Positions 1-32,000 of a stretch of 32,000 nucleotides of DNA are shown piece by piece; the first letter of the stretch is position 1; the number at the start of each line of letters is the position of its first letter. Both the position numbers and the translations under genes were made by a program. The notes under the pieces are model-generated. The model did no database searches. It was not told the origin of the DNA and saw only the letters and a program-made list of their open reading frames with translations. This DNA comes from Delftia acidovorans NBRC 14950 (GTDB lineage Bacteria > Pseudomonadota > Gammaproteobacteria > Burkholderiales > Burkholderiaceae_C), in NCBI RefSeq assembly GCF_001598795.1, contig NZ_BCZP01000027.1, positions 40,313 to 72,312 of the forward strand. Direction: 5' to 3'.

Positions 1-1
1 G

Positions 2-544: not shown

Positions 545-581
545 CGGCACGCATCCTCCCATTCCCATTGCTCCCCAGACC

Positions 582-3915: not shown

Positions 3916-3916
3916 C

Positions 3917-5053: not shown

Positions 5054-5077
5054 ACATTTTCCAGGAGGGAGCACCCA

Positions 5078-5470: not shown

Positions 5471-5481
5471 GGAACCTTCGC

Positions 5482-6233: not shown

Positions 6234-6251
6234 CCGTCCCTGGGCAGCGCA

Positions 6252-6267
6252 GGCAGCAGGCTTGCGC
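6252..6267 (+). promoter_or_regulatory. Candidate sigma-54 (-24/-12) promoter upstream of fliF
   Basis: aGGCAGcaggcTTGCg fits the TGGCAC-N5-TTGC spacing exactly (GG at 6253-6254, GC at 6265-6266). It lies in the 85-nt fliE-fliF gap, about 52 nt upstream of the fliF ATG. This is a motif match only. Confidence 0.3.
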
Positions 6268-6318
6268 GCGCCCCGGATCACACCGCTGAACTTCGCAACG
6301 CATCAAGAGCAAAAACAC

Positions 6319-12936: not shown

Positions 12937-12961
12937 AGCGCTCCCATCCCGAGGACATTCC

Positions 12962-14134: not shown

Positions 14135-14137
14135 TCC

Positions 14138-15034: not shown

Positions 15035-15041
15035 ACTGTCT

Positions 15042-15446
15042 ATGTCTTTGCAGAACACGCCGCCGCAAGCTCCTGGCGCGCAATCCATTCCGTCTCCGGC
15101 CCCGCGCATGCAGCGCATCGAGCTTGCCGAGCTGGATACTGCTGCCCCTTCCCCGGCTTCCTCTGCGGCACCCCAGCCGCTGGTGCCCAGCCTGCACCCG
15201 CTGCACCAGGTCAAGACCACCGTGCAGGTCTGCGTGGGCACTGCCACGCTGACGGTCGGTGAACTGCTGGGCGCCCAGGCACAGCAGGTGCTGGTGCTGG
15301 ACACGGCTGTGGAGCAGGCCGTGGACCTGCTGGTGGAAGGCCAGGTGGTTGCGCGTGGGCAACTGGTGGCTGTGGGCGACCGCTTCGCCGTGCGCCTGAC
15401 GGAGCTGCCCACGCCGCTGGGACTTCAAGCCAAGGCACATCCATGA
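15042..15446 (+). CDS. fliN: Flagellar motor switch protein FliN
   Basis: ATG at 15042. The N-terminus is Pro/Ala-rich. It is followed by the SpoA block VKTTVQVCVGTATLTVGELLGAQAQQVLVLDTAVEQAVDLLVEGQVVARGQLVAVGDRFAVRLTEL. Confidence 0.82.
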   Translation: MSLQNTPPQAPGAQSIPSPAPRMQRIELAELDTAAPSPASSAAPQPLVPSLHPLHQVKTTVQVCVGTATLTVGELLGAQAQQVLVLDTAVEQAVDLLVEGQVVARGQLVAVGDRFAVRLTELPTPLGLQAKAHP

Positions 15447-15859
15447 CCGTGGCACTGCCGGAGTCCATCCCCCTGCGCCGTGAGCCAGCGCCTGTTCCCG
15501 GCACGCCCGCCGAGGAACTGGCGTGGATGGGTGTTTTCATCGTCCTGCTGCTGCTGGTCTTCGTGGCTTGGCGCAAGTGCCGGCCGGGCGGCGCTGCCAG
15601 CGAGGGCAAGGCGCCGGCAGCGGGCTGGCTGGGACGGTGGATGGGCAGTCTGCAAAAAAAGCAGGAGCTCCGTACCAGCCTGGTCTCCAGCGCACGCCTG
15701 ACGCCCCAGCACAGCGTGCACGAGGTGACCTGGCAGGGCAGGCGGCTGCTGATAGGCTGCGCACCCCAGTCCATCGCCTTGCTGGCCGAGGCACCGCTGG
15801 ATGAGAGCGCGGCGCAGCCAGCCCCGTCCACCAACGAAGGCAAGGACGGCACGCCATGA
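15443..15859 (+). CDS. fliO: Flagellar biosynthesis protein FliO-like
   Basis: ATGA overlap with the fliN stop. There is a single TM helix (WMGVFIVLLLLVFVAW) followed by ...LVSSARLTPQHSVHEVTWQGRRLLIGCAPQSIALLAE, the usual FliO layout. It lies between fliN and fliP. Confidence 0.55.
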   Translation: MTVALPESIPLRREPAPVPGTPAEELAWMGVFIVLLLLVFVAWRKCRPGGAASEGKAPAAGWLGRWMGSLQKKQELRTSLVSSARLTPQHSVHEVTWQGRRLLIGCAPQSIALLAEAPLDESAAQPAPSTNEGKDGTP

Positions 15860-16605
15860 CACAAGCCGCATCTAGCAGCCTGCGTCAGGGCCTGCGCAGG
15901 GCCGCAGCCGTGGGCGCCCTGTTGTTCATGGCGGGCGCCGCCTATGCGCAGGCCAGCGGCAAGGCCGGTGCAGCCACGGAGACATCGCAGGCCTTGCGTA
16001 TCGTCATCGGCCTGACCCTGCTGGCCGTGCTGCCCGCCTTGCTGGTCTGCGTGACCAGCTTCCTGCGCATCATCATCGTGCTGTCCATGCTGCGCCACGC
16101 CATCGGCATGAACGAAACGCCGCCCAACACCGTGCTCATCGGACTGGCGCTGTTCCTCACCATGTTCACCATGGCGCCCGTGCTGGAGCAGGTCAACCGC
16201 GAAGCCGTGCAGCCCTTCATGGAAGGCCGCGCCGGCATGCAGGAAGGCTTTGCCAAGGGCATGGCGCCGCTGCGCGACTTCATGGTGCGCCAGACGCGCG
16301 AGCAGGACCTGGCCCTCATGGTCGAACTGTCCAAGGCCGAGCCGCCCGCGTCCATGGACGACATCAGCAACGTGCAGCTGATTCCGGCCTTCATGCTGTC
16401 CGAGCTGCGCGCCGCCTTCCAGATCGGCTTTGTCGTCTTCCTGCCCTTTCTGCTCATCGACCTGATCGTCTCCAGCGTGCTCATGACGCTGGGCATGATG
16501 ATGATGCCGCCCACCACTATCGCCTTGCCCATCAAGGTGCTGATGTTCATCCTCATCGACGGCTGGAGCCTGCTGCTGCGTGCGCTGGTGGGCAGCTTTC
16601 ACTGA
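15856..16605 (+). CDS. fliP: Flagellar export apparatus protein FliP
   Basis: ATGA overlap with the fliO stop. LRIVIGLTLLAVLPALLVCVTSFLRIIIVLSMLRHAIGMNETPPNTVLIGLALFLTMFTMAPV and PFLLIDLIVSSVLMTLGMMMMPP are FliP/SctR signatures. Confidence 0.92.
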   Translation: MTQAASSSLRQGLRRAAAVGALLFMAGAAYAQASGKAGAATETSQALRIVIGLTLLAVLPALLVCVTSFLRIIIVLSMLRHAIGMNETPPNTVLIGLALFLTMFTMAPVLEQVNREAVQPFMEGRAGMQEGFAKGMAPLRDFMVRQTREQDLALMVELSKAEPPASMDDISNVQLIPAFMLSELRAAFQIGFVVFLPFLLIDLIVSSVLMTLGMMMMPPTTIALPIKVLMFILIDGWSLLLRALVGSFH

Positions 16606-16625
16606 GGCCTGCGCGCTTGCCCGCC

Positions 16626-17477
16626 ATGGCTGCCGCCGCACCTTCCGCAAGCACGGATCTTCTCCTGGAGGAAGAGGCGCAACTGTGGTCGCGCTGGCGT
16701 GGGGCAGGCGATGCGGCGGCCCGCGAGCGGCTGGTGCTGCACTACCTGCCCTTTGCCCGCACCCTCGCTGCCGTGCATTACCGCGGCCGGATCCACGCCG
16801 ATGTGGAGTTTGACGACTACCTGCAACTGGCGCGCCTGGGCCTGATGGAGTCCGTGGACCGTTACGAGCCGGAGCGTGGCGCCCAGTTCAAGACCTATGT
16901 GGCCCATCGCATCCGTGGTGCCTTGCTCAACGGCCTGGAGAAAGCCACCGAAAAAAGCCAGCAGATCGCGGCCCGCAAGCGCCTTCAGGCCGAACGGCTC
17001 GAAAGCGTCAAATCTGCGGCGCTGGACGCAGCTGCGTCCCATCCCTGCGATGAAGGCCGAGGGACAACGGCGCGCGGCCCGGTGGCCCGCTCGCGCCAGA
17101 GCACCTTGCTGGCCTACCTGGCCGAAGTCGGCATAGGCATTGCGCTGGGTGTCATGCTGGAGGACACCGGAATGGTCGCCGCCGACGGGGAATCCGAAGG
17201 CGGGGACGTTGCCGCCGTGGCCGCCTCCCCCGACGTGCTGTACTTCCGAAAGACCGAACTGCAACGCTGGCGGGAGCAACTGCGCGAGGCACTGGCACGG
17301 CTGCCAGCCCAGGAGAGCAAGGTCATCCGCTACCACTACCAGCAGGAAATCCCGTTCGAAGAGATTGCCGCCATGCTCGGCGTCTCGCGCAGCCGGGTCT
17401 CGCAGCTGCACCGCCAGGGGTTGGGCAAGTTGCGCCACATGCTAGGACAGGGGCCGCCCTGTGACGTCTTCCTCTAG
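16626..17477 (+). CDS. fliA: Sigma-28 (FliA)-type RNA polymerase sigma factor
   Basis: Region 2 reads DDYLQLARLGLMESVDRYEPERGAQFKTYVAHRIRGALLNGL. Region 4.2 HTH reads IPFEEIAAMLGVSRSRVSQLHRQGLGKLRHML. It has a flagellar context. ATG at 16626; the track's TTG at 16617 is also possible. There is an extended acidic/Ala-rich insert between regions 2 and 4. Confidence 0.72.
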   Translation: MAAAAPSASTDLLLEEEAQLWSRWRGAGDAAARERLVLHYLPFARTLAAVHYRGRIHADVEFDDYLQLARLGLMESVDRYEPERGAQFKTYVAHRIRGALLNGLEKATEKSQQIAARKRLQAERLESVKSAALDAAASHPCDEGRGTTARGPVARSRQSTLLAYLAEVGIGIALGVMLEDTGMVAADGESEGGDVAAVAASPDVLYFRKTELQRWREQLREALARLPAQESKVIRYHYQQEIPFEEIAAMLGVSRSRVSQLHRQGLGKLRHMLGQGPPCDVFL

Positions 17478-17560
17478 ACGCCTGCCCATACCCGCCAATC
17501 CCACCACAGCTTCAGCCCCCGTGGCTGCCCTGACAATCACCACCATCCGAGGGAACATCC

Positions 17561-18733
17561 ATGAGCGCACAAACTCCCCAGACTGACGAAGGCTCCACGG
17601 CCAGGCTGGAACGCCTGGAAGCCTATCTGCGTGAAGACCCGTCCAACCCCGGCCTGCTGACCGAGGCCTTTGGGGCGGCGCTGCAGTGTGCCCAATGGGA
17701 GCGTGCCGCCTTTCACCTGCGGCACGCCCAGGCGCTGCAGCCCGGCAACCTGGCCTGGTCGCTGCGCGAAGGCGACCTGCTGCTGGCCCAGGGCCAGTAC
17801 CAGCTCGCCGCCGAACTGCTGGATGCCCTGCTGTCGCTGGACGGCGCACCCCGAGAATTCACCGATGCCGTGCTGCACAACTTGGCCTGGATCGCCTTCC
17901 AGGATGGCCGCTACCAGGATTGCGCAGACAGGTTGACTTCCAGGCTGCAGGATCTGGACCACCCTGCGTCGGCCGCATTGGCCCGCCTGTGGCTGCGTGC
18001 ATTGCACCATGCAGGCCAGGTCGATCAGGCCGTGGCCTGGGCTGGCGCTGCGGATGCAAGGCAACAACTGCCCGCCGCCGCCGCGGGCGTGGCCAGCCTC
18101 GCAGCCCTGGATGCGGATCAGTTGGAGCGTGCAGGCCAATGGGCCGCCCGTGCGCTGGAGCAGGCCACGCCTGACGACCGCCCCATCGAGGCCTTGGTCA
18201 CCCAGTCCTCGCTGGCGCTGGCCCGCCAGGATGCGGCACAGGCCCGCACGCAGGCCCGCGCCGCCCTGCAGATCAGCCCGCGCGATGGCCGTGCCTGGTC
18301 CGCCCATGCCATGGCCGACCTGCTGGCTGGCGACCTGCCCACGGCCCTGGCCCACTTCGACAACGCCCTAGCCACCATGCCCGGCCATATCGGCACCTGG
18401 CACGGCAAGGCCTGGGCGCAGCTGCTGTCTTCCGACCTGCAGGGAGCGCAGCGTAGCTTCACCAGCGCGCTGGACCTGGACCGCAACTTCGCCGAAAGCC
18501 ATGGCGGCCTGGCCGTGGCCCTGGCCCTGCAGGGCCGCACGGACGAGGCCCAGCAACACATTGAGCGCGCCCTGCGCCTGGACGCCTTCAACCTCTCCGG
18601 ACGCTACGCGCAGGCCATCGTGGGTGGAGAGATCCGGGATCTGGAGTCCTTCCAGGCGCTGGCCAAGCGGCTGTTGCGGGGGCAGGATGGGTTGCTCAAG
18701 GCAGTGCTGGGCGCCTCAAAGGCTGGGCGCTGA
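17561..18733 (+). CDS. TPR-repeat protein
   Basis: GAGGGA precedes the ATG at 17561. The 390-aa protein has repeated about 34-aa Ala/Leu/Trp-rich units (e.g. AWSAHAMADLLAGDLPTALAHFDNALATMPGHIGTWHGKAWAQLLSSDLQGAQRSFTSALDLDRNFAESHGGLAVALALQGRTDEAQQHIERALRLD). Confidence 0.7.
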   Translation: MSAQTPQTDEGSTARLERLEAYLREDPSNPGLLTEAFGAALQCAQWERAAFHLRHAQALQPGNLAWSLREGDLLLAQGQYQLAAELLDALLSLDGAPREFTDAVLHNLAWIAFQDGRYQDCADRLTSRLQDLDHPASAALARLWLRALHHAGQVDQAVAWAGAADARQQLPAAAAGVASLAALDADQLERAGQWAARALEQATPDDRPIEALVTQSSLALARQDAAQARTQARAALQISPRDGRAWSAHAMADLLAGDLPTALAHFDNALATMPGHIGTWHGKAWAQLLSSDLQGAQRSFTSALDLDRNFAESHGGLAVALALQGRTDEAQQHIERALRLDAFNLSGRYAQAIVGGEIRDLESFQALAKRLLRGQDGLLKAVLGASKAGR

Positions 18734-21071: not shown

Positions 21072-21302
21072 CTAATTTGCTTGGAACTCAGCAGGTGTCA
21101 GAACACGAACACCCGCTGCCAGCATTCGCTTGACTACCTCATCAGCATCCAAATTGTTTTCAATGAGCTTTGCCGCCTTCGCATCAGTGTTGACTATCAG
21201 ATATTCCGGCTCACTGCCAGATGCGCCAACATTCATAAGAGCCCACTGCGGCGCAGTCCCATCCCATAAGTATCCATATTGCTGCACTTGCGCTTCCATC
21301 AT
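21072..21302 (-). CDS. Small protein downstream of orphan toxin tip (putative immunity protein)
   Basis: 76-aa ORF (MMEAQVQQYGYLWDGTAPQWALMNVGASGSEPEYLIVNTDAKAAKLIENNLDADEVVKRMLAAGVRVLTPAEFQAN). GC is lower than the genome background. Its position downstream of a toxin-tip ORF is the only functional evidence. Confidence 0.4.
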   Translation of the reverse strand: MMEAQVQQYGYLWDGTAPQWALMNVGASGSEPEYLIVNTDAKAAKLIENNLDADEVVKRMLAAGVRVLTPAEFQAN

Positions 21303-21412
21303 TTGCTCCCTGTGACATCCTTGCTGAATCTAACTACATCCTTGCCTACCGGAACAATCTGAGAACTGCGTTGAGGCGAGCCGATGGCTTCAAGGAAGCG
21401 CATAACTTTCAT
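21299..21412 (-). CDS. 37-aa ORF start-stop coupled to both neighbours (separate peptide or frameshifted 5' part of the immunity gene)
   Basis: Its ATG (21412-21410) overlaps the stop of the orphan tip (ATGA), and its TGA overlaps the ATG of the 76-aa ORF (ATGA). Translation by hand: MKVMRFLEAIGSPQRSSQIVPVGKDVVRFSKDVTGSK. It is not in the supplied ORF track because it is too short. Confidence 0.25.
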   Translation of the reverse strand: MKVMRFLEAIGSPQRSSQIVPVGKDVVRFSKDVTGSK

Positions 21413-22509
21413 GTCCTGTGGACTTGTCCATGCAGTTCCACCAGGGTGCGATAAATCAACATCATGTCACTTTGCAATGGAACGTCAACGGCTCCCTTTT
21501 CGCCAGAATATAAGAAGTACTGCCCTCCACGACTGTTTTGGCCGGGGCCCAGCTTGTAGGTCACTGCAAATTCGACATCATGCTTGACCGTCAGAGCTTC
21601 CAGCTGCACTGGCGTTGGACGCCCTGGCACTGCCACTCCAGAAATACCAGGTAACCCCTCGCCAACTCTTGCACCGTACAAAAGCCTCTCGACCGCGCCG
21701 GTCTCGGCCAACGTCGCACTTCCGACATTGCCAAGACGGTAGTTTCCATACTTCGCCAACTCGGTGCTCAAACTTCGAACACCAGCGCCAAGACCCAATG
21801 CAGCCTGTCCCACATCGTTGAACAGGCTCCCCAATTCGTAGCTTCTCTGGAAGTCGTCGCTCGTGATGGACGATGCCAAACTATACCGGTTGGCGACGTC
21901 TTCGATCAAATTGGTGGCCGTCTCGACAGGACTGCCAGCCAGGTTGATGATGCCCTTGCCCAACGCGCTATTGTTCTCCCAGGAACGTTGCATCAAAGGT
22001 GTGTTGTGGAAGGCACCTCCCGTGACAACATCCAACGCCTGATTAAAGGTGTCGCTGAGCGTGCGAACAGTGCCATAGGCCATTTTCCCAAAGGACGCAC
22101 CAACGCCAGCCACAGCCCGAGCGGACGGCAGTGCGTCGCGCACGCCTGGACCGTATCCATTGCCTGCGTCACTTGCCGTGCTCTGAGGTCCACTGGCAAG
22201 CACCCAAGATTCCTCGGAAATCGGCAGCGTCCCACGCAAACCTTCTATCGAGGAGACATCAAAGTCACCCGCTGTGTCCTGGACATCGCTCGCACGCACA
22301 TTGCCGTACCTCAGCCCCTCACCACTACCAAGCCGCAGACCAGTTCCGTCATCGCCTGAACCGCCGAGGCTGTAGAGCCTGTTGTTGGCCTGGCCGTGCA
22401 GTTCAGTGCCCGTGGACGCACTGGCCACGGACCACCCCAACGCATTCCCAAACGCATCGGTCGCCACCTGCTGCATGCTGACCCGCCCAACCTGGGTGAT
22501 CAAGGCCAC
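21409..22509 (-). CDS. Orphan polymorphic-toxin C-terminal cassette (junction motif plus variable tip of unknown activity)
   Basis: Starts ...ALITQVGRVSMQQVATDAFGNALG..., the same motif that precedes the tip of the large toxin. In-frame homology extends upstream to a stop at 22543-22545 (GAGLAAGT...). There is no credible RBS and only a GTG start. It shares the loose LYSL...GLRLG..GLRYG..RA pattern with the main tip and then diverges. Confidence 0.55.
   Translation of the reverse strand: MALITQVGRVSMQQVATDAFGNALGWSVASASTGTELHGQANNRLYSLGGSGDDGTGLRLGSGEGLRYGNVRASDVQDTAGDFDVSSIEGLRGTLPISEESWVLASGPQSTASDAGNGYGPGVRDALPSARAVAGVGASFGKMAYGTVRTLSDTFNQALDVVTGGAFHNTPLMQRSWENNSALGKGIINLAGSPVETATNLIEDVANRYSLASSITSDDFQRSYELGSLFNDVGQAALGLGAGVRSLSTELAKYGNYRLGNVGSATLAETGAVERLLYGARVGEGLPGISGVAVPGRPTPVQLEALTVKHDVEFAVTYKLGPGQNSRGGQYFLYSGEKGAVDVPLQSDMMLIYRTLVELHGQVHRT
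22436..22473 (-). repeat. Junction box, orphan copy (38 nt identical to 26208-26245)
   Basis: cccaacgcattcccaaacgcatcggtcgccacctgctg was read at both sites. It encodes QQVATDAFGNALG on the - strand. Confidence 0.95.
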
Positions 22510-22586: not shown

Positions 22587-23078
22587 TTATTTAGAACTTA
22601 TTGTAAATGAATGGCCTGTGCAAATAATATTTCCATCATTAATATCTACACTGTTTAGCGTTTGAAGTATATGAATTTCTTGATTAATTTCTGTTTTTTT
22701 GTTGAAAAGATAGCCCATGAATTCTGAAGGCAATATTTTTAATAGTACTCTTGAAAGAAGTTCCGATTGATTTTTCAGCATTTTCTCAAAAGATATATAT
22801 CCAGTGTCATGTAAATATTTATAATCCCCTTCAAGCTCTTCGTAGAATCCCTCATCTTCCGATTCACGGTCGATGAAATCCTGATAATATTTCGAAAAAT
22901 GAATGATTGCATCGGAGAACTCAATTTTTAAAAAATAGAAATTAACCTCTTCTGAAGGCAAGGATTTTCCGAATGAATGGTGATCGACTGTTATTTTTGA
23001 GCAATCAATTGGGTGTTTATTTATTTCGCAGTAACGCATTAGAAAAATCCGCCGGGTGGCACTAGTGTAATTTTCCAT
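22587..23078 (-). CDS. AT-rich hypothetical protein (putative immunity/partner of the IS-disrupted orphan module)
   Basis: The ORF is open over 22587-23195. Likely starts are ATG 23078 or ATG 23039, the latter 22 nt after the upstream stop. The DNA is very AT-rich (about 27-30% GC by eye) and the protein is Lys/Glu/Phe/Ile-rich. I recognise no motif. Confidence 0.4.
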   Translation of the reverse strand: MENYTSATRRIFLMRYCEINKHPIDCSKITVDHHSFGKSLPSEEVNFYFLKIEFSDAIIHFSKYYQDFIDRESEDEGFYEELEGDYKYLHDTGYISFEKMLKNQSELLSRVLLKILPSEFMGYLFNKKTEINQEIHILQTLNSVDINDGNIICTGHSFTISSK

Positions 23079-23430
23079 CTGGATGAATGGAAATGTATCC
23101 AGACGGACCAAATGGTTGTCCGGCACGTTCTGGAGGGAAGGGACCACGAACTCCTGATCTTTGAAAAAATTCCTGTGGACTGACGATGAGTCCACTAAGA
23201 GGATTATTTCCAGAGAATATGCGTATTACTCTCTCTGATTTCAATAGGCCTCCGGCATCGAAGTTATCAAGGATGGTTTCAATTTGTTTTGTTTTCATTT
23301 TTGAATTAAAGCCAATATCTAGATCACTGTCCGGTCGGAATTGTTTCTCGCCAGCGAAGAATGATCGTATACGGCTTCCTCCCAAAACAACTTCAACAGG
23401 CTTGGGCGTGTTAAGACTGGCTAACACCAC
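23062..23430 (-). CDS. Nucleotidyltransferase-fold ORF, 5' end disrupted by IS insertion
   Basis: VEVVLGGSRIRSFFAGEKQFRPDSDLDIGF fits the minimal Pol-beta-type NTase pattern (G-S ... D-x-D). The first about 6 codons, including the GTG start, lie inside the IS terminal repeat, so the native N-terminus is missing or displaced. Confidence 0.4.
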   Translation of the reverse strand: MVLASLNTPKPVEVVLGGSRIRSFFAGEKQFRPDSDLDIGFNSKMKTKQIETILDNFDAGGLLKSERVIRIFSGNNPLSGLIVSPQEFFQRSGVRGPFPPERAGQPFGPSGYISIHPDGKLH

Positions 23431-24290
23431 CGATCCACGAAGCGCGCGCAGATGATCGCTGCCGCCAATTTCAGCAGCGCTTCGTGGATATCCAGCCGTC
23501 GTTCAAAGCGGATTCGCAGCTTGCCAAAGCCTGCAAACCAGCTGTGCGTCCTCTCCACCACCCACCGGTGTTTGCCCAGCCGCTCGCTGCTCTCAATGCC
23601 TCGTCTGGCAATCCGGCCAATGATGCCCCGCTGCCTCAGGTGGGCTCGGCATCGCTTGAAGTCGTAGCCTTTGTCGGCGTGCAGCTTTGCCTGTCGTCTA
23701 CGGGGACGTCCTGACAGGCCAGCAATCGCAGGAATCGCGTCCACGCACCTCTCGAACATCTTGGGGTCGTGCCGGTTCGCGCCGCTGACCAAGATCACCA
23801 GCGGGATGCCTCTGGCATCTACGACGATGTGCCGCTTGGGGCCCCGAGCTTGCCTCTGTCCGTGGGGTTTGGGCCCGTTTCCTGGCCCCCCGAGGGCCTG
23901 GTACCGAGGAGCCATCAATGCTGCCTCGGCTCCAATCGATTTGGTCATGTTCACGCAAGCGAGTCAGCATGGCTTGGTGCAGCTGCTCCCAGACACCAGC
24001 GGCATTCCAGTCGCGCAGACGCCGCCAGCAAGTCATGCCGCTGCCGTAGCCCAGGGATTGGGGAAGGTCTTCCCATGGAATGCCTGTTTGCAGCACGAAC
24101 AAGATGCCGTTGAGGGCAGCCTCATCGCTGACTGCGAGCTTGCGCGCGCCGCCTTTGGCAGAAGGCACGAAGGCTGGGATCAGGGGTCGTAGCTGTCGCC
24201 ACAGTTCTTTGCTTGCAGGTCGTCTTGCCATGAGGGCCGCGAACATAACTGCTCCGAGGGCGCCTCTGGGAAAGTAGTGTCAGCTACTCT
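23414..24290 (-). mobile_element. IS5-family insertion sequence (IS427-like size class)
   Basis: Imperfect terminal inverted repeats: AGACTGGCTAACACCAC (23414-23430) versus the reverse complement of 24274-24290, AGAGTAGCTGACACTAC (13/17 matches). It is flanked by TA on both sides (23412-23413 and 24291-24292). It encodes a DDE transposase in two overlapping frames. Its GC is high relative to the AT-rich target. Confidence 0.75.
23421..24246 (-). CDS. IS5-family DDE transposase, split over two overlapping frames (orfA 23698-24246, orfB 23421-23954)
   Basis: orfA reads ...ALNGILFVLQTGIPWEDLPQSLGYGSGMTCWRRLRDWNAAGVWEQL...IDGSSV. orfB reads ALGGPGNGPKPHGQRQARGPKRHIVVDARGIPLVILVSGANRHD...LHADKGYDF...IARRGIESSERLGKHRWVVERTHSWFAGFGKLRIRFERR. 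These are the typical IS5/IS427-group transposase blocks. Confidence 0.8.
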
Positions 24291-24466
24291 TATTACAGGA
24301 TTGCCATTTGCATCGAGGGTTATAAACTGACGACTTGCAAGAGACGGAGTGCCGCCGCGAACACGGAAAAATTCACCGTCGTACCCGCCATCGGTGCGAA
24401 GTTTTCTTCAATGCTAATTGAAACAGCCCACAATATGAAGGTCGTTCATCGATTCATTAGAGTAGC

Positions 24467-24865
24467 TCACATATTCCGAAGCAATCGCATCACGTCATCT
24501 TTTCTAGGACTTTGCTGAGATTCAAGATATGCATAAATCTGCATCAACCTAGGTCGTAAGTTAGGCGAGGGCTTAACTGACATATTTTCAAGCTCTGATG
24601 CCGCAATCGCGGCCACCTGCAGGTGATCCGAATTTAGAAGCTTTGTTAACAGAGTGTCGGCGAATTCGCCCCCTGTAGCACCAGCAGCTTCGGCACATCT
24701 CTCTTGCCAGTAAGCAGGCTTTGTCAAAGCCCGCTCTGTAAGCTCGTACCAATCGGACGGTGAGAAATCATGCAGCTTATCCGCAGCAAGTTGAACACTA
24801 ACTTCTTGCCACCCAGAAGCAGGTGAGCCCAGCAAAGCGTCGTACGATTCATTCATGATATTCAT
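24467..24865 (-). CDS. Putative cognate immunity protein of the EndoU-like toxin tip
   Basis: The 132-aa ORF starts 6 nt after the toxin stop. It is AT-rich like the toxin tip and helical and acidic (…DWYELTERALTKPAYWQERCAEAAG…). The assignment rests on position only. Confidence 0.5.
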   Translation of the reverse strand: MNIMNESYDALLGSPASGWQEVSVQLAADKLHDFSPSDWYELTERALTKPAYWQERCAEAAGATGGEFADTLLTKLLNSDHLQVAAIAASELENMSVKPSPNLRPRLMQIYAYLESQQSPRKDDVMRLLRNM

Positions 24866-24871
24866 TTTAGT

Positions 24872-27800
24872 TCACGGAGGCGAAATTGGCCTTCCCCCGG
24901 TAGGGAAAGAGGATGTGATTATACCGTTCTCTTTTACCACTTGCCACTGAACTCCGTTGACAACGGATGTATGCACAGTGGTTTCCACTCCATTTGTATT
25001 CCGAAGCACAAAACCCGGCTGTTTTCCAGTTATCTTGCCTGCCTCAAGAATATCTGCATTCCCCCACGTTTCGGGGGCAATCGTTTGAATATTCGGTGAT
25101 TTTGCCTTTGAAAAACCAATGCTGCCATCCTTTCGAACGATTGTGCCTTTGAAGTCCGTCACCGAAATCGTCCCATCCGGGTTAACCGTGGAGTAAGGGT
25201 TCATCTGATAATTTGGAGAGCTCAGCACGTCGGGGGAGTGGCCTCCGACGAAGTTGTTAGTCCCGGGTTTTCCAGCGCCAAATAGAATTTTAGAGTCAAG
25301 TTGTGTCAGTGGCCCGAAAAAATCGGAATCACCAGGCACCGGCACGACGGTATTGCCAAATTTAACCCCCCCAAGCTGGGCCGCTCTGCTCCCTATTATC
25401 GGTCCCGAGAATGCATTGTCGAGTGCCGCTGCTGCTATACTACCAGTTGCTCGTATTCCAGTAACCGTTCCATATATTTCAGCGCCAGCTTGCAAGCTTG
25501 CACCGAGAATGGATGTTATTCCATCACCTAGATGCTCCTCGGAAAATGCGCGAGTTGGGTTGATTATATTGCTCTGAACGTAGGCTGCCGCAGGTGCCAA
25601 TTTGCCTAAGATAGCCTCTGCACCGGGACTGTCGGGCGTATAACTGTAGTTTGTTTGAAGAATATTCTGAACACCTACCGCAGTATCTACTCCACTCAAA
25701 ATGGCGTATGGAATGGAAGCCAGTGCACTACCAATACGTACAGTTTGGTTGTAGGTTCCACCCAGCACCAATTGCGCAGTTCCTTGAATATATTCAGCCC
25801 CACTTGGTGAGGCGATAGAAATATCTGTGTTAAATGCTGGAGCATTATCTAAACTAATAGATGGTAACGCTACAGGTTTCAGAATATTATGGCTAATTAC
25901 TTCGGTTGCACGCACATCGGAATCGTAGTAATCGTATCGCAAGCCCTGCGAATTTACCCCTTGATAGATGATCTTTGGAGTGGCATACATTGATGCCAAA
26001 TACCCGTTATTCCCGAAACTGTCTAAATTCTGTGTATTAATTCCGAATGATGGTATTGCGCGTTGTTCCCCATAACTGAGGCCAGCAGCGCCACCAAGCC
26101 TCAGATTCGGCTCGCCGTTTCCAGGAAGCAACCCAAGCGAGGCTCGGTCGTCAGACGCCAAACTATAGATTGAGGGTGTGGGCTGATTGAGTGACGCAAG
26201 GCTCTCTCCCAACGCATTCCCAAACGCATCGGTCGCCACCTGCTGGATGCTGATGCGCCCACCCCGCGCCACGGCAGCAGCCGTACCTGCCGCGAACCCG
26301 CTGATCGTGCCACGCGCGATGCCTGCCGCAGTCTGGTTCCACTCGCTGAACACGGTGGAGGTCTTGAGCTGGCCGTCCACATAGCTGCCCGCGGCGCCAC
26401 CGGCCGCGCTGGCCGCCACGCTCTTCCAGTCGAATCGGTCTTGTAGCCCCGTGACCACGCCAATACCCTGGGTCATGGCATTGGCCGTAGCTGCTCGCAT
26501 AGCTGCCGATTGCCAGTCCGTTCCGCCCAGCAGTTCCGTTCCTGCAAGGCCCTTGGTGATGCCACCGCTGAGCGCAGACAGAGCCACGCTCTTCCAACTG
26601 AAGCCGTCCTGCACCCCCATCAGATTGCCAGCGACTTGGCTGGCGATGGAGCCTGCGGCCCCTCCTACTGCAGCACCCATCGCCGAGGTGGTGGCAGTGG
26701 CTCCGGCTCCGCTGATCAGCCCGGGCACCCCCATATTGGCGAGGAACTGAGGAGCATAGACGGCAACCACTACAGCCACCGCCACCATGATGATCTTGCC
26801 CAGCGCCCCGCAGCCACCTCCCTGGCCCGCAGGCGCAGGCAGCACCGAATCCAGGCTGCCCGTGACCCGGCTCGGGTCATAGGGCTGGAAGGTGTCTGCG
26901 TTGTTGGCGTTCAGGGCCAGCTTGGGAATGCTCAGGGTCTGGCCGGCCGTGAGCTCGCCGTCGCCCGAGACGGCCAGGCCGTTGGCTTCCGCTATGCGCC
27001 ACCACAGGCTGCTGTCGCCCAGCACGTTGCGGGCGATGGTCTTGAGGGTTTCGCCGCCGACCACGGTGTAGCTCATCGCGCTGAAGTTGGTGTCGCGCAG
27101 CTTCAGGGCAGGGGCGTTCAGGTGGAATTCTGCGGTGTTGACGTATTTGGGGACGTCTCCAGCCTTGGGCGGGTTCTCGGAGTCGGGGGCGTCGCCGTAG
27201 CGGGCCAGGACTTCGCCGTTGGCCACCAGTTGCCGTTGCACGTGGCCGGGGTTGATGGCGTCGCCGATGAAGCCGCCGATGTAGCCACCGGGCTCGTTCT
27301 GGATGCGACCGCCCTTGTCGGCCGTGGTGCCGGCGCTCTGGTTGACGTAGAGCGCATTGCCGCGCGCGTCGTTGACGAAGGCCCGGTTGTAGCGGGTGTC
27401 GTAGACCTCCCCTTTCTGCTCGATGTTGCTGATGAAGCCGTTGGCGTCGCGCCAGGTGTTGGTGGTGGCCGTGCGGCCCCCCTGGGTGGTGGTGGACTCG
27501 GTCTGCTGGTAGCTGCCGTTGAACTGGTACTTGTAGGTGGTGCGCGTGGCATCACCGGTGTTGCCATTCGTGGTCTGCACTTGCCCGCGCAGGTTGCCAG
27601 CGGCGTCGTAGCCCAGGCTGGGGTCGGTGGTGCCGGGGGCGCCATGGTAGGCGACGTCGGTGTGCTGGATCTTTTGCTGGTTGTCGGCGCGGCGCATGAC
27701 GACGCGGGTGTCCTGCACGCGGCCCAGGGTGTCGTACTGGTTGTAGCGGTGTTCGGCTTCGCCGGTGCTGCTCAATGTCTTGGCATAGACCTGTCGGCCG

Positions 27801-30800
27801 GCTCCGTCGTAGAGGATCTGGCCGGACTGCGTGGCCTTGCCCGACTGGCTGATGCTGAAGCTGTCCAGCCGGTGCAGGTCGTCGTAGACGTAGTGGTTGA
27901 CCGTTTCCTGGGCGGCCTTGCCAGAGGTCTGTTCACTGGCAATGTCGCTGGTGCGGTTGCCGGCCAGGTCGTAGGCGTAGTTGTGCTTGAGGGTGGTGGA
28001 GGTGATTTGCTCAAGTCCCACCTTCTGGATCTGCCATTCGAAGCTGACAGTCTGCCGGTTCATGGCGTCGTATGCATAGGTCGTCAGGCTGGCATTGTCC
28101 ACCTGGTCGTACCAGCCAGGCGATTGCCACCATTGGCCCGCGAAGTTCACCTTGTAGAGGTTGTTGATGACGCTGGTCTTGACCTGGCTGCGGTTGCCGG
28201 CCAGGTCATAGCTGATGCGCACGTCGGTGCGGCCATCGAAGCTGGCGCGCAGGCGGTTCTGGGCATCGTAGAACAGGTGGTTGTCCTGGTAGACCACGTT
28301 TTCGATGAGGCCGGAGGACAGCTTGGTCTTCTGGGTGAGCTTTTCGGTGAGTCGGTTGCCGGCCAGGTCATAGGTGTAGCTGCTGAGCTGGCCCAGGTAG
28401 TTGTCCTTGATTTCGATGAGCTGGCCCGCGCCATCGTAGCGGTAGTCCAGGCTCTTGCCCTTGGTGTTGCCCTCATGGGTGAGCTGGCCGGCCTTGTTGT
28501 AGTCGTACTGGTAGTAGACGCGTGAGGCGTTGTCCAGTTGCGAGTCGCTTCGGGCTGTCAGGCGACCGAAGATGTCGTAACTCCAGTCCTGGGTCATGGC
28601 GCTGGCGCCATCTCCGGCACCGGTAAAGCCTATCTTGCGGCCCAGCGTGTCGTAGCGGTAGTAGTTGACGTTGCTCAGCCCGCCCAGTGTCACGGTGGGG
28701 CCGGGTACGGCCGGCGATGCGGTGACCTTGACCTGCTCCTGCCCGCTCATGGTCACGTTGCCGGCCAGGTCGTAGCGGTAGCGTGTGGCTTCGTTGTTGC
28801 CGTTGATGACGCGCACCTTGCGGCCGGCCTCGTCGTACTGGATGGTTTCGAGCGTGCGCAAGGCAATGGCGTTCTGGGGATCGGCCCCCGAGACGCCGTT
28901 GGCCGCATGGACGCTACCGTTGACACCATTGGCCACCGCGCCGTTGACCGATCCCAACTCGAACCGCGAGAGGGTGGACGTCGATGCCAGTGTCGTGGAG
29001 GTCAGCCGCGATAGCTTGTCATAGCTGTAGTCGGTGACCACGGTGCGCGTGGCGGTCATGCGCTCGGCTGCACTGATCTTGTCGCCAAAGGCGTTGTAGC
29101 TGAGGTCTATGCGCCCGCCGTCGGCCTTGCGCTCCTGCACCACGTTGCCGGCCAAGTCACGGACCTGGGCGTTGATGTTGCCCTTGCCGTCACGCACGCC
29201 GACCTGGCGGCCCAGTGCGTCGTAGTAGATGCGCGTGGTGGTGTATTCGGTGGGGCCTTCGTAGCTGGCCAGCTGGGTCTGGGAGGTGAGCTGGTTGCTG
29301 GCGTTGTAGGTGAAGCTGGTCTTGAACAGGGTCTGGCCAGCCTGCACGCGCGGGTCGTCCACCCCGGTGAGGTTGCCCCAGCGGTCGTACTCGCGGTTGG
29401 TGACGGCGCGGTTGCTGAGGTTGAAGGGCGTGCCGGCCCACACGCGGGTCTGCACGGTTTCCGTGTAGGGCGGGGTGGTCTCCTGCAGGCTGATGGCGCT
29501 CGAGGAGGGGACGGTGACCTTGACGATCGATTTGGCGACATAGGCCGCGTGCTGGGCCGTGGCCGGGTATTCGATCTCGATCGTGATCCTGTACTCGGTA
29601 TTGGGCGTGAGCGCATCCAGCACGATGCCCTGCAGCGGCGCCCAGTTCGGGAAGTGGATGCGGTTGTCGCCCTGGCGCCACAGGGTGGGCGTGCCGCCCG
29701 GCAGGCTGGGGTAGGAACTGACCTTGACGCGTGCACCGACCTCCGGGGCGCTCCAGTGCAGCATGTTGTAGATCTGCCCGTCGATGGCCGCCTGGCTGGT
29801 GCCCACGCCGGCGACGTTGGCCGTGGCAATCATCTCGGCGCTGAGCACCCAGGGATTGGTGATGTCGTATTCCTGCGTGGTGGTCAGGTAGTCGCCCAGG
29901 GGCTGGTTGCCCATGGCGTTGCGGTTGTAGGCCGCATACAGCGGCACCATGTCATCGGCCGGGACCTTGGAGATGTAGCCGTCGAATTGGTAGGCGCTCT
30001 GGTACCAGGTGGTGGGCGACCACGGGTAGTTGGCGGCCGGCTTGGAGTTCAGGGTGACGAAGGAGCCGCCGTTGACATCCTGCGGATTGGCCGTGAGGCG
30101 GAAGACGGTGGAGGCGCCGTATTTGTACTGGTACAGGCGCTGGTTGGTGGCCGAGGGCGAGGTCTCCACATAGCCGACGATGCCGTCATAGATGACGGCG
30201 CCGGCAGCCTCCAGCGCCTTGAATTCGGAGAAGACCGTGGGATCGGCCGAGGTGAGGTGGTGCTGGTTGTTCTGGTAGGTGAAGAGGAAACGGTGCAGAG
30301 GCACGCGGCCGGGAGCAGGGCTGCTCCAGACATAGCCGACCACGCCCAGGTTGGTGACGTTGCGTTTTTCCAGAACCGGCGCGGGCGAGACGTTGGTCAT
30401 GGCCACGTTGCCTGGTGTTCCGACCTGGCCTGTGGCATGCACCTTCTCGCCCGTGGCGGTGTTGGTGGCGATCACCTCGTATTCGATGCTGCCCGGGCCC
30501 CAGTTGACGGCCACGCCTTGCCTGTTGATGCCCATGCCCACGGTGCGCCCGTCGCCATAGGCGAACAGGCCGTTGCCGACCGTGCGCGTGGTCACGGCAG
30601 AGCTGTTGCCCTGGGGCCAGTAGCGGAATTCCACAGTCCAGCCCGCCGCAGGCTTGGGCCACTGCAGCACGCGGTAGGGGTAGCCGTCGATGATGGCACT
30701 GCCCTGTTCCACGCCGCCGGGCAGGGGCGGCAGGTTGCCGTTGGTGCTTTCTGCACCGATGGTGAAGGTGCCCGAACCCACATCGCGCGTCATCTGCGCA

Positions 30801-32000
30801 TTGGTGTTGCGCACGCGGTATTCGTAGTTGCCGGCGGGGAACTGGCTGACGTCGAAACGGTGGGCCGAGCCGAACGAGGTCTGTATGCCCACGGGCGCGG
30901 TGGTCCAGCCGTCATTGCTGCCGTAGCGGCGGTATTCGAGCGTGGTCTTGCTGACCAGGTCCTGCGGGTAGCTGACTTCGATGCTCAGGCCCATGACCTT
31001 GGCGAACATGAGCGAGGTGTGGGAAGACCCTCCGAAGGTGGCCCTCGGCAATCCCAGCAGGGCGTTGCGGTCAGTGATGGAGGTGGTGTACAGGCCGTCG
31101 CCGCGCCCACTGGCCTTGTTGTCCAGCCTGTAGAGCTTGGTCATGCCCGGCACTTCGGTGGTTGCGCCGGGGGCCACGTAGCCCTCTATGCCCTGGTTCT
31201 GCCACGAACCGCCGGCCGATGGCGCGCCGCCATTCGTGTACAGAGAGACATCGGGGTCGCCAGCCTTTGTCCAGCGGTACAGCGGTATAAGACCGGGTTG
31301 CGGATCGCGGCTCACGTAGCCGGCCGTGCCCTCATCCAACCAGCCCTTGGACTGGTTGAGCAGGCGCTCGCGCTCGGTCAGGCTGGTGGTGAAGTAGTGG
31401 GTATCGGTGTAGCGGTTGTAGTAGCGGTAGATGGGAATGCGGCCGTCTCCGGCCTCGTTCCAGATCTGGCCGGGGCTGCTGCCCTCGGTCCAGTTGAGGG
31501 TAGAGGGCTGTGCGGGGCCGTCCACGCTGTACAGCGACTGCCATTTGCCGAAGACGTCCATCTTCTCGACCAGGACCTTCTTGATGGCGCCTATGCCTGG
31601 AGCGTCCGCACTCGCATTGGCCCATTTGAGGCTGTAGCCTTCCACGGCTTCCTCGGCAGGCACGATGACGGTCTTGGTCTGGTCGCGCAGACTGGTGACG
31701 TTATAGGTGCCGCTGTGCTGGGTGTTCAGCGTGAATGCCCGCGTGTCGTAGGTCAGCGTGATGCGCACGTCGCCGCTGCCCAGGTCTTCCAGCGAGCGCC
31801 AGACCAGGTCCACCTGGTTGTAGGGCTTGCGTTGGTACTCGACAGGCACAGTCTGGACGTCCACCTCGCTTTGCGAGATCACCCCATACAGCATGTTCTG
31901 CCGCGTGGTGATGCTCATCGGCTGCTCGGTCGCACGCTCGGGCGCCAGCGTCTGCACCAGCCGGCCCAGCGCGTCGTAGCGCATGTCCGTGCGCCGGAAC
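24872..32000 (-). CDS. Giant YD (Rhs-type)-repeat / LysM polymorphic toxin, 5' end outside window
   Basis: A single uninterrupted ORF stays open to the window edge (...FRRTDMRYDALGRLV). It has many YD repeats (YDALGR, YDLAGN, YDGAGQ, YDAAGN), lectin-like YRxYN...H(F/Y)(Y/F)T...GW..EG repeats, a LysM domain, a TM helix LGKIIMVAVAVVVAVYAPQFL, a G/A-rich region, the junction QQVATDAFGNALG, and then an AT-rich C-terminal module. Confidence 0.88.
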   Translation of the reverse strand, partial: FRRTDMRYDALGRLVQTLAPERATEQPMSITTRQNMLYGVISQSEVDVQTVPVEYQRKPYNQVDLVWRSLEDLGSGDVRITLTYDTRAFTLNTQHSGTYNVTSLRDQTKTVIVPAEEAVEGYSLKWANASADAPGIGAIKKVLVEKMDVFGKWQSLYSVDGPAQPSTLNWTEGSSPGQIWNEAGDGRIPIYRYYNRYTDTHYFTTSLTERERLLNQSKGWLDEGTAGYVSRDPQPGLIPLYRWTKAGDPDVSLYTNGGAPSAGGSWQNQGIEGYVAPGATTEVPGMTKLYRLDNKASGRGDGLYTTSITDRNALLGLPRATFGGSSHTSLMFAKVMGLSIEVSYPQDLVSKTTLEYRRYGSNDGWTTAPVGIQTSFGSAHRFDVSQFPAGNYEYRVRNTNAQMTRDVGSGTFTIGAESTNGNLPPLPGGVEQGSAIIDGYPYRVLQWPKPAAGWTVEFRYWPQGNSSAVTTRTVGNGLFAYGDGRTVGMGINRQGVAVNWGPGSIEYEVIATNTATGEKVHATGQVGTPGNVAMTNVSPAPVLEKRNVTNLGVVGYVWSSPAPGRVPLHRFLFTYQNNQHHLTSADPTVFSEFKALEAAGAVIYDGIVGYVETSPSATNQRLYQYKYGASTVFRLTANPQDVNGGSFVTLNSKPAANYPWSPTTWYQSAYQFDGYISKVPADDMVPLYAAYNRNAMGNQPLGDYLTTTQEYDITNPWVLSAEMIATANVAGVGTSQAAIDGQIYNMLHWSAPEVGARVKVSSYPSLPGGTPTLWRQGDNRIHFPNWAPLQGIVLDALTPNTEYRITIEIEYPATAQHAAYVAKSIVKVTVPSSSAISLQETTPPYTETVQTRVWAGTPFNLSNRAVTNREYDRWGNLTGVDDPRVQAGQTLFKTSFTYNASNQLTSQTQLASYEGPTEYTTTRIYYDALGRQVGVRDGKGNINAQVRDLAGNVVQERKADGGRIDLSYNAFGDKISAAERMTATRTVVTDYSYDKLSRLTSTTLASTSTLSRFELGSVNGAVANGVNGSVHAANGVSGADPQNAIALRTLETIQYDEAGRKVRVINGNNEATRYRYDLAGNVTMSGQEQVKVTASPAVPGPTVTLGGLSNVNYYRYDTLGRKIGFTGAGDGASAMTQDWSYDIFGRLTARSDSQLDNASRVYYQYDYNKAGQLTHEGNTKGKSLDYRYDGAGQLIEIKDNYLGQLSSYTYDLAGNRLTEKLTQKTKLSSGLIENVVYQDNHLFYDAQNRLRASFDGRTDVRISYDLAGNRSQVKTSVINNLYKVNFAGQWWQSPGWYDQVDNASLTTYAYDAMNRQTVSFEWQIQKVGLEQITSTTLKHNYAYDLAGNRTSDIASEQTSGKAAQETVNHYVYDDLHRLDSFSISQSGKATQSGQILYDGAGRQVYAKTLSSTGEAEHRYNQYDTLGRVQDTRVVMRRADNQQKIQHTDVAYHGAPGTTDPSLGYDAAGNLRGQVQTTNGNTGDATRTTYKYQFNGSYQQTESTTTQGGRTATTNTWRDANGFISNIEQKGEVYDTRYNRAFVNDARGNALYVNQSAGTTADKGGRIQNEPGGYIGGFIGDAINPGHVQRQLVANGEVLARYGDAPDSENPPKAGDVPKYVNTAEFHLNAPALKLRDTNFSAMSYTVVGGETLKTIARNVLGDSSLWWRIAEANGLAVSGDGELTAGQTLSIPKLALNANNADTFQPYDPSRVTGSLDSVLPAPAGQGGGCGALGKIIMVAVAVVVAVYAPQFLANMGVPGLISGAGATATTSAMGAAVGGAAGSIASQVAGNLMGVQDGFSWKSVALSALSGGITKGLAGTELLGGTDWQSAAMRAATANAMTQGIGVVTGLQDRFDWKSVAASAAGGAAGSYVDGQLKTSTVFSEWNQTAAGIARGTISGFAAGTAAAVARGGRISIQQVATDAFGNALGESLASLNQPTPSIYSLASDDRASLGLLPGNGEPNLRLGGAAGLSYGEQRAIPSFGINTQNLDSFGNNGYLASMYATPKIIYQGVNSQGLRYDYYDSDVRATEVISHNILKPVALPSISLDNAPAFNTDISIASPSGAEYIQGTAQLVLGGTYNQTVRIGSALASIPYAILSGVDTAVGVQNILQTNYSYTPDSPGAEAILGKLAPAAAYVQSNIINPTRAFSEEHLGDGITSILGASLQAGAEIYGTVTGIRATGSIAAAALDNAFSGPIIGSRAAQLGGVKFGNTVVPVPGDSDFFGPLTQLDSKILFGAGKPGTNNFVGGHSPDVLSSPNYQMNPYSTVNPDGTISVTDFKGTIVRKDGSIGFSKAKSPNIQTIAPETWGNADILEAGKITGKQPGFVLRNTNGVETTVHTSVVNGVQWQVVKENGIITSSFPTGGRPISPP
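24875..25264 (-). other. EndoU-like nuclease toxin domain (C-terminal about 130 aa of the giant ORF)
   Basis: NNFVGGHSP...KAKSPNIQTIAPETWGNADILEAGKI...VNGVQWQVVKENGIITSSFPTG matches my recollection of the bacterial EndoU toxin pattern (GGH ... FPxxW ... I-T-x-[FY]-P near the C-terminus). Confidence 0.5.
26208..26245 (-). repeat. Junction box, main-gene copy (38 nt identical to 22436-22473)
   Basis: The same 38-mer as the orphan copy. GC drops sharply immediately 3' of it in the gene (lower coordinates). Confidence 0.95.
26838..28745. repeat. 1.9-kb dispersed duplicate (copy 2, inside the intact toxin gene)
   Basis: Partner of 18754-20638. The boundaries were read from where identity starts (ggcagcaccgaatccagg) and ends (gtgaccttgacctgctcctg). 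Confidence 0.85.
26921..27070 (-). other. LysM peptidoglycan-binding domain within the giant toxin
   Basis: YTVVGGETLKTIARNVLGDSSLWWRIAEANGLAVSGDGELTAGQTLSIPK fits the LysM consensus (Y.V..GDTL..IA........ L...N.l.....l..GQ.L.IP). Confidence 0.85.
29857..31447 (-). other. Region of lectin-like repeats interleaved with beta-sandwich-like modules in the giant toxin
   Basis: Repeats include RIPIYRYYNRYTDTHYFTTSLTERERLLNQSKGWLDEGTAGYV, LIPLYRWTKAGDPDVSLYT...WQNQGIEGYV, MTKLYRLDNKASGRGDGLYTTSITDRNALL, RVPLHRFLFTYQNNQHHLTSADPTVFSEFKALEAAGAVIYDGIVGYV and MVPLYAAYNRNAMGNQPLGDYLTTTQEYD. They resemble the repeat I recall being catalogued as DUF5648. IDGxxYxxLxW modules lie between them. Confidence 0.5.

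Follow-up and report, generated by a model that had tools for sequence, protein, structure and literature searches.

Two traits serve to classify polymorphic toxins: the scaffold that delivers them and the pre-toxin junction, at which new toxins are swapped in. We analysed a window of 32,000 nucleotides (nt) from Delftia acidovorans NBRC 14950 (contig NZ_BCZP01000027.1, positions 40,313 to 72,312), which ends inside a giant minus-strand gene. With a probability of about 0.82, we read the product of this gene as a giant YD-repeat polymorphic toxin from a large family that has no name, in which the conserved body closes with a fixed pre-toxin module instead of an RHS core. The closest described systems are the Rhs/WapA proteins (RhsA, Tse5 and Tre23-Rhs, which are type VI secretion system [T6SS] proteins; WapA of Bacillus and Streptococcus), CdiA of the type V secretion system (T5SS), the prePAAR effectors, and the toxins that join an EndoU domain to PAAR or PT-HINT.

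The Rhs/WapA proteins share YD/RHS repeats, variable C-terminal toxins, downstream immunity genes and orphan cassettes with the window family, together with the DUF6531 lid that opens the repeat region in full-length relatives. By contrast, the window family has no RHS core, DPxGL aspartyl protease, PAAR, prePAAR or Sec signal; its protein is three to four times longer, with repeat blocks interrupted by immunoglobulin (Ig)-like and lectin-like domains; and its LysM domain is not N-terminal but follows the repeats, next to a hydrophobic helix. WapA-CT1 of S. suis combines LysM, DUF6531 and Rhs (PMC12704120); its LysM is N-terminal and follows a Sec signal, and the protein has a canonical core. 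The 2012 survey of polymorphic toxins (Zhang/Aravind) mentions LysM as an adhesion domain only. We rejected the LysM mentions in PMC6833914, PMC13133200 and PMC12419801 as precedents, since they concern unrelated architectures.

CdiA and the window family both have a giant repetitive stalk, a short motif marking the start of the variable toxin (VENN or (Q/E)LYN in CdiA, QQVATDAFGNALG here), a modular tip whose N-terminal sub-domain is reused ahead of different toxins, an immunity gene immediately downstream, and orphan tips with homology in the junction only; one relative even carries CdiA_C_tRNase. The window family differs in having no two-partner secretion (TPS) domain, filamentous haemagglutinin (FHA) repeats, DUF637, PT-VENN or CdiB partner; its stalk consists of YD repeats and its pre-toxin region of LysM plus helices. 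In prePAAR effectors of the Rhs/Tse6 type, as Ahmad et al. reportedly proposed in 2020, transmembrane (TM) helices insert into the inner membrane of the target and aid toxin crossing. Hydrophobic helices fused to a polymorphic toxin are common to both, whereas those of prePAAR effectors are N-terminal beside PAAR and need Eag chaperones, and the one described here lies C-terminal to the YD repeats, upstream of the tip and beside LysM, with no Eag or PAAR genes near the toxin. The PAAR-EndoU and PT-HINT-EndoU toxins (P0123, P0124 and P0129) are 64–68% identical to the window protein over its last 155 amino acids (aa) and have a homologous immunity protein (42%); their scaffold is altogether different, being either a short PAAR protein with VgrG-DcrB next to it or a toxin processed by HINT. 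Full-text searches of the literature found no description of the motif, leader or architecture, and absence there is no proof. We rate the pre-toxin module and the unrecognised export route as what is new, the polymorphic toxin plan itself being already known.

The preliminary description of this DNA, made from its letters alone, had proposed one unbroken minus-strand open reading frame (ORF) with a fixed order of modules, and regular-expression searches and profiles placed every motif where it had been claimed. The ORF runs unbroken through 24872..31984, and aa are numbered from the Met at 31984. Because the frame continues open past this Met up to the window edge, it is not the true start and the N-terminus is truncated by the window. 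The full protein is probably 4000–6400 aa long, so that the window would hold the last third or so. The searches located YD motifs at aa 3, 866, 921 and 1050–1459, IDGxxYxxLxW at aa 432 and 734, WKSVA at aa 1797 and 1853, and DAFGNALG at aa 1919. Pfam and NCBIfam profiles matched RHS/YD repeats, LysM (aa 1639–1687) and two stretches of DUF5648, the latter being the repeats previously called lectin-like. The features of the toxin gene and its partner are as follows.

24872..32000, minus strand: C-terminal 2375 codons of the putative giant YD-repeat polymorphic toxin, open at the window edge
29495..31498, minus strand: aa 163–830, DUF5648 lectin-like repeats and beta-sandwich-like IDGxxYxxLxW modules (profile and motif)
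27350..29407, minus strand: aa 860–1545, last YD/RHS repeat block (profiles, AlphaFold2 [AF2] and Foldseek)
27071..27349, minus strand: aa 1546–1638, family-conserved linker after the YD repeats, FVNDAxGNALYV ... RQLVxNGEVLxRYG, not an RHS core (alignment and profiles)
26924..27070, minus strand: aa 1639–1687, LysM peptidoglycan-binding domain (PF01476, AF2 and Foldseek)
26735..26812, minus strand: aa 1725–1750, GGCG Cys and TM-like hydrophobic helix (alignment, hydropathy and AF2)
26267..26692, minus strand: aa 1765–1906, low-charge helical segment rich in Gly, Ala, Ser and Thr, with an internal duplication (composition, AF2 and self-alignment)
26207..26245, minus strand: aa 1914–1926, junction QQVATDAFGNALG, part of the last predicted helix (alignment, GC and AF2)
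25805..26206, minus strand: aa 1927–2060, tip sub-part A (73% identity to P0023)
25340..25804, minus strand: aa 2061–2215, tip sub-part B (recurs in ten other family sequences)
24875..25339, minus strand: aa 2216–2370, tip sub-part C, 155-aa EndoU-like toxin domain (profile and homologues)
24467..24865, minus strand: candidate immunity protein of 132 aa, 7 nt past the toxin stop codon (homologues follow EndoU toxins)

The pre-toxin module has a defined order: the conserved linker, LysM, GGCG with the hydrophobic helix, the duplicated Gly/Ala-rich helical unit, and the helix bearing QQVATDAFGNALG. It takes the place at which a canonical Rhs protein has its core. The RHS-associated core TIGR03696 and all other core profiles gave no match at E ≤ 0.1 in this protein, and motif searches of the ORF for PxxxxDPxGL/DPxGL, VENN and (Q/E)LYN were empty, as the preliminary description had stated. 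The RHS core was equally absent by NCBIfam profile from the relatives (0/67). Among 243 relatives, PxxxxDPxGL occurred once, about 4100 aa upstream of the junction in that protein, xLYN twice and VENN not at all. Pfam matched no SpvB, TcdB or TcA-type domain, and no TPS domain or FHA repeat, in the window protein or in its full-length homologue at locus L056.

The repeats themselves are clear members of the RHS group by score (PF05593, 3.9e-21; TIGR01643, 3.4e-15). An AF2 model of aa 840–1700 (predicted local distance difference test [pLDDT] 76.5; predicted template modelling score [pTM] 0.60) consists of beta hairpins throughout, and Foldseek matched it locally to RhsA, Tse5, Tse15, TcC and teneurins, with a probability of 1.0 and E values down to 2e-27. 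The template modelling score (TM-score) to solved shells was only 0.13–0.32, the best being that to the half-shell TcC. Of the YD shell that had been proposed, the repeats, their hairpins and the local likeness to Rhs shells therefore stand; a closed cage is undemonstrated. Encapsulation in the manner of Rhs seems unlikely because the repeats are trailed by about 830 aa, among them the folded LysM domain and the hydrophobic helix.

The same architecture recurs on a large scale. A protein search with aa 1550–1935 gave 138 proteins among the matches listed, the listing of this indexed search being confined to proteins no longer than about 1.74 times the query; the closest named proteins were those of Delftia acidovorans (86–91% identity). 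These homologues, all ≤674 aa, had suggested stand-alone short proteins, an idea that we rejected since an unindexed search revealed full-length members of 4200–6400 aa, in which the module always lies about 400–700 aa from the C-terminus. This HMMER search, with aa 1690–1930 and hence excluding LysM, found 1973 cluster representatives at E ≤ 1e-3, 1209 at ≤1e-10 and 199 at ≤1e-30, mostly from Burkholderiales, so that the family comprises about 2000 clusters at 50% identity. In databases, its members go under no other names than “YD repeat-containing”, “LysM peptidoglycan-binding” and “RHS repeat protein”. When one genome from each species was scanned with a profile built from a six-sequence alignment, 51 loci emerged, mostly in Comamonadaceae (Acidovorax/Paracidovorax, Variovorax, Delftia, Comamonas, Rhodoferax and Ramlibacter), with further ones in Pandoraea, Massilia, Roseateles, Rhodocyclaceae, Chitinimonas and a single Arenimonas. 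The ORF extends more than 10 kb upstream of the junction in many of these loci. A scan of genomes with the first 250 aa in the window found no relative, this region being poorly conserved. The family is very large and common in soil and plant-associated Burkholderiales. Because it uses YD repeats without known junctions, processing domains or secretion signals, searches based on the Rhs core, PAAR or VENN miss the family together with its toxin and immunity genes, for which QQVATDAFGNALG offers a simple mining handle.

A complete homologue of 6200 aa is encoded on a Variovorax megaplasmid (L056). It opens with a leader of 39 aa and continues with DUF6531, RHS repeats, eleven Big_3_5 domains, a further set of RHS repeats, LysM and the module. 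At L056:21968-23517, its Gly-rich tip precedes a 100-aa membrane protein, which we take as an immunity protein against a membrane-acting toxin; next come an orphan tip, which opens with ...NVFGNALG and contains sub-part B of the window toxin, and then an IS21 element. A second possible source of an N-terminus, the 2108-aa “complete” ORF of L038, was discarded for its implausible start.

Conservation ends at the junction. In 33 relatives, the 200 aa up to the end of the motif had a median identity of 47.5% (minimum, 38.5%), compared with 20.7% for the 200 aa past it and 19.3% for the final 150 aa. In the anchored alignment, columns lost conservation about five residues past ...DAFGNALG (xSLAD); the preliminary description had suggested a test for a collapse right behind this motif. 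Base composition changes at the same place: the GC content is 64.8% in the scaffold and 48.6% in the tip, with the break no more than 100 nt from the motif, and GC content at third codon positions (GC3) is 0.87 in the scaffold, 0.39–0.48 in the tip and 0.45 in the immunity ORF. Seven related loci carry two or three tandem junctions on one strand. Within the window, an orphan tip at 21409..22509 shares 54 nt with the main gene, 94% identical, and this stretch encodes exactly the junction. Everything past the junction helix is a replaceable cassette, and recombination at the junction-coding DNA allows the spare cassettes downstream to take the place of the active tip.

The C-termini of relatives are far from invariant. 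Pfam searches of 67 relatives detected at least 14 different toxin families, including Ntox46, Tox-SHH, Lipase_3, Tox-ART-HYD1, CdiA_C_tRNase, GH-E, Ntox21, Ntox22, Tox-MPTase4, Amidase_2, Tox-HNH-HHH, EndoU and SLT_4. Because identity and GC3 fall at the motif and relatives carry many different toxin domains, the protein is, as judged from sequence, a polymorphic toxin. The absent core and VENN motifs, the collapse at the junction, the varied tips, the reuse of the junction by the orphan tip and the kinship of the downstream ORF to the gene behind a PAAR-EndoU toxin likewise support the earlier suggestion of a distinct polymorphic-toxin scaffold, in which YD repeats are followed by LysM and a membrane segment.

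The tip of the window toxin (aa 1927–2370; 444 aa) is a three-part mosaic. Sub-part A is common to P0023, a protein with the same scaffold and a different toxin end carrying an HExxH motif. Sub-part B lies mostly upstream of the extreme C-terminus in the ten other sequences that have it, and may be an adaptor or entry domain. Sub-part C is 57–72% identical to the C-termini of PAAR (T6SS) and PT-HINT toxins carrying EndoU_bacteria (PF14436), and its close homologues have precomputed PF14436 matches. His2249, His2338, Lys2232 and Lys2279 are invariant across 11 homologues. A sequence search of the PDB with this EndoU-like domain, a probable RNase, gave no match, and the profile version of the search matched only the PAAR parts of homologues.

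The 132-aa ORF behind the toxin stop codon is a candidate for the cognate immunity gene. Its product was 42% identical (E = 3e-36) to that of the ORF following a VgrG-DcrB-PAAR/EndoU gene and 30% identical (4e-17) to that of a second ORF following an EndoU toxin on another scaffold. Because homologues of the ORF follow EndoU toxins on other scaffolds, the EndoU-like toxin and its immunity gene appear to move together from one delivery scaffold to another. The window's own tip, with its immunity gene, also occurs in orphan position in metagenome contig L001.

Between the repeats and the junction, LysM is the best-defined part: PF01476 scored 27.5 bits against a cut-off of 20.9, and the AF2 model matched solved LysM domains with a probability of 1.0. 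The domain ends about 40 residues ahead of the hydrophobic helix (AF2 helix, aa 1727–1750), which coincides with the sole strongly hydrophobic window of the protein (aa 1722–1750; mean Kyte–Doolittle value, about 2). Just ahead of this helix, Cys1725 (26810-26812) of GGCG is kept in 101 of 123 family members; we rejected it as a lipobox, in which the Cys comes after the hydrophobic run. About 180 aa past the helix are charge-poor, with 52–74% Gly, Ala, Ser and Thr inside predicted helices, and over aa 1727–1926 Gly and Ala make up 38% and charged residues 9%, compared with 16% charged residues in the whole protein. The motif G(V/L)QD(G/R)F(S/D)WKSVA(L/A)SA occurs at aa 1790 and 1846, each copy following the pattern helix, G(L/V)QDxFxWK, helix. 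The two Gly/Ala-rich halves, which align with z = 7.7 relative to shuffled sequences, are a true internal duplication. An AF2 model of aa 1500–1940 from a 61-sequence alignment (pLDDT 69) shows the last YD hairpins, a confident LysM fold and then seven helices of 19–24 residues, namely the hydrophobic helix and six more, the last of which bears the junction motif. Foldseek comparison of the module with the PDB matched the LysM part alone and gave no fold for the helices, over which no Pfam or NCBIfam model matched in this protein or in 67 relatives.

Export signals of the kinds named in the preliminary description (signal peptide, PAAR/VgrG or a TpsB partner) were sought in relatives only. The start MVAIVSGNSLGLSLTSLATLGQRG..., with DUF6531 behind it, is common to 19 long members, full-length members beginning MVAIVSGN...-DUF6531, and a metagenome scan with this N-terminus gave 266 relatives. 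The N-termini of full-length relatives have no Sec-like signal, PAAR, TPS or LXG domain; 1.57 Mb of sequence from 138 related loci contains no VgrG, PAAR or DcrB homologue; and we saw no conserved transporter or CdiB-type partner upstream of the relatives' genes. We also tried the leader as a flagellar axial protein-like segment and dropped this idea, Pfam matching nothing there apart from DUF6531. The family makes the exit of a 6000-aa protein without a recognisable signal directly testable.

How such a toxin might work can be put as a tentative sequence of steps, to which, taken as a whole, we give somewhat less than even odds. The C-terminal region would reach the periplasm of a neighbouring cell, where LysM would dock on the peptidoglycan of the target. 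Together with the glycine-zipper-like helices, the hydrophobic helix would then insert into the target cytoplasmic membrane, and the tip would pass across it, perhaps after cleavage near the junction helix. Sub-part B may help entry as an adaptor, as in CdiA-CT, and the EndoU-like domain would cut RNA, with the immunity protein shielding sibling cells. The LysM and helix module is accordingly a testable candidate for toxin crossing of the target inner membrane.

Several observations weigh against this account of the protein and its mode of action. The N-terminus of the gene is outside the window. PF14436 matched the tip with E = 5.9e-5 and 23.9 bits, under the gathering score of 25.3, and the usual first His of the EndoU pair is apparently replaced (SKILFG...GGHSP). 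Only one helix is hydrophobic enough for a classical TM segment. Confidence in the helical part of the AF2 model is moderate (pLDDT 63–87), and this part has no structural analogue. Basic residues on the LysM side of the hydrophobic helix fit poorly with a simple topology of LysM outside and tip inside. These basic residues and, finally, the lack of an export signal are difficulties for the translocation reading and for a producer-anchored arrangement alike.

In that arrangement, a possible but doubtful one, the protein would be a “loaded” toxin like CdiA: LysM would bind the peptidoglycan of the producer, the helix would sit in its inner membrane, and the YD, Ig-like and lectin-like part would be displayed outside, with the tip retained and guarded by the immunity protein until a target is bound. 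Until a receptor is bound, CdiA retains the C-terminal half of the protein in the periplasm of the producer, which we count in favour of this arrangement. The spacing of about 40 residues between LysM and the only strongly hydrophobic helix suits it, as do the basic residues that several relatives have on the N-terminal side of the helix, the lack of a signal peptide in the immunity candidate, and the lectin-like and Ig-like domains, which are apt for surface display. Against it, no N-terminal export signal would place 4000–5000 aa outside the cell, and no partner transporter gene was seen. We know of no precedent for a long N-terminal region crossing the inner membrane ahead of a C-proximal anchor.

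Translocation into the target, the mechanism that we favour, could also belong to a new delivery class, which we think unlikely. These signal-less YD proteins of 4000–6400 aa would then leave the cell by a route unlike that of any described polymorphic toxin, and the module would be a self-contained device for docking on peptidoglycan, inserting into the inner membrane of the target and releasing the tip at the junction helix. The neighbouring fliP-fliA-TPR genes and the small tetratricopeptide repeat (TPR) genes at the start of the giant gene give hints of flagellar type III export or of FliA control.

Quite improbable is an anti-eukaryotic or insecticidal YD toxin, Tc- or teneurin-like, or a giant adhesin, in place of an interbacterial weapon. 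DUF5648 lectin-like, Ig-like and YD domains do occur in Tc toxins and teneurins, and the lipase or ADP-ribosyltransferase tips of some relatives could act on eukaryotes. The protein has, however, none of the SpvB, TcdB or TcA-type domains; its locus has all the features of a bacterial polymorphic-toxin locus, with a small immunity gene and orphan cassettes; and nuclease tips are shared with antibacterial T6SS effectors, and relatives also carry peptidoglycan amidase and transglycosylase tips.

Least credible, and largely refuted, is a canonical Rhs (T6SS) effector whose core has diverged past recognition and whose toxin is released by core autoproteolysis from a closed YD cocoon: the RHS repeats with their local fold match to RhsA, Tse5, Tse15 and TcC, the DUF6531 lid of full-length relatives and the occurrence of the window's EndoU domain on PAAR effectors speak for it, whereas TIGR03696 is missing here and in 67 relatives, DPxGL-type motifs are absent, relatives have neither an N-terminal PAAR nor VgrG, PAAR or DcrB genes at their loci, the TM-scores to closed shells are low, and about 830 aa past the repeats are too much for a cocoon of about 700 aa of repeats.

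We tallied gene neighbourhoods in 43 loci with at least 3 kb of upstream sequence. In the first type, fliP-fliA-TPR comes ahead of a small, divergent TPR gene and an ORF of 127 aa. The small TPR gene (about 185 aa) diverges from the giant gene in 16 loci, and the 127-aa ORF, which belongs to no family, accompanies it in 15 of these 16. Small-TPR loci are L060:8945-9895, L065, L088-L090, L096-L098, L104, L112, L113, L115, L121, L131 and L136-L138. Both the small and the large TPR neighbours gave only generic TPR matches, far below the SycD/LcrH cut-offs, and we claim no role for them as chaperones. The second type, present in 15/43 loci, has a divergent ATP-grasp-like gene and a nitroreductase(SagB)-YcaO fusion 0.2–5 kb upstream of the gene start (L066, L068, L070, L071, L075-L078, L081, L086, L087, L097, L104, L115 and L135), with a radical S-adenosylmethionine (SAM)/SPASM-like gene in seven loci and a 2-oxoglutarate (2OG)-Fe(II) oxygenase ORF also seen. 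This divergent ATP-grasp/YcaO operon looks like a peptide-modification cluster.

The window, Comamonas, three genomes of Variovorax and at least 11 contigs from metagenomes have fliP-fliA and a TPR gene of about 400 aa directly beside the toxin locus (window 1-18733; L023, L028, L039 and L056; L065, L088, L090, L097, L104, L121, L133, L134 and L136-L138). The TPR protein of the window is 49% identical to that beside the Variovorax L056 gene, and in Comamonas and two further genomes of Variovorax the block likewise borders the toxin array. It sits variously at the gene start or at the end of the array, and was not seen in other genera with enough flanking sequence. The adjacency may be lineage synteny or may have a functional basis, for example control by FliA or export through the flagellar system.

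Downstream of the immunity candidate, the rest of the window contains the following features.

24278..24389, minus strand: remnant of another toxin C-terminus, 37 aa, interrupted by an insertion sequence (IS); 81% identity to the end of P0059 (Delftia sp. PS-11)
23421..24246, minus strand: IS4/IS5-family transposase in two frames (DUF4096 and DDE_Tnp_1; profile)
22587..23430, minus strand: an ORF of 122 aa and one of 202 aa with 33% GC, without a profile or family match
21409..22509, minus strand: orphan tip of 366 aa opening with the junction MQQVATDAFGNALG, similar to the main junction DNA over the shared 54 nt and unrelated beyond
21072..21302, minus strand: candidate immunity ORF for the orphan tip, 76 aa, recurring after the matching toxin domain in L013
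18696..20705, minus strand: truncated paralogous copy, YD end and LysM, in a 669-aa ORF (87% nt identity to 26832-28744)
17561-18733: TPR gene converging on the toxin array
1-17500: flagellar gene cluster

In four contigs from metagenomes (L001-L004), too, the 132-aa immunity gene is followed by the P0059-like remnant. The 122-aa ORF has a GS...DxD nucleotidyltransferase-like motif and is followed by the 202-aa ORF, with only 33% GC; the two may represent a further toxin's end plus its immunity gene. In an Acidovorax contig (L013), the toxin end of the orphan again stands with its 76-aa partner, at 87% and 81% identity, respectively. The truncated 669-aa copy stops exactly ahead of the GGCG-TM helix and runs into the 3' end of the TPR gene that converges on it; this copy is probably the trace of an old rearrangement at the toxin island's edge.

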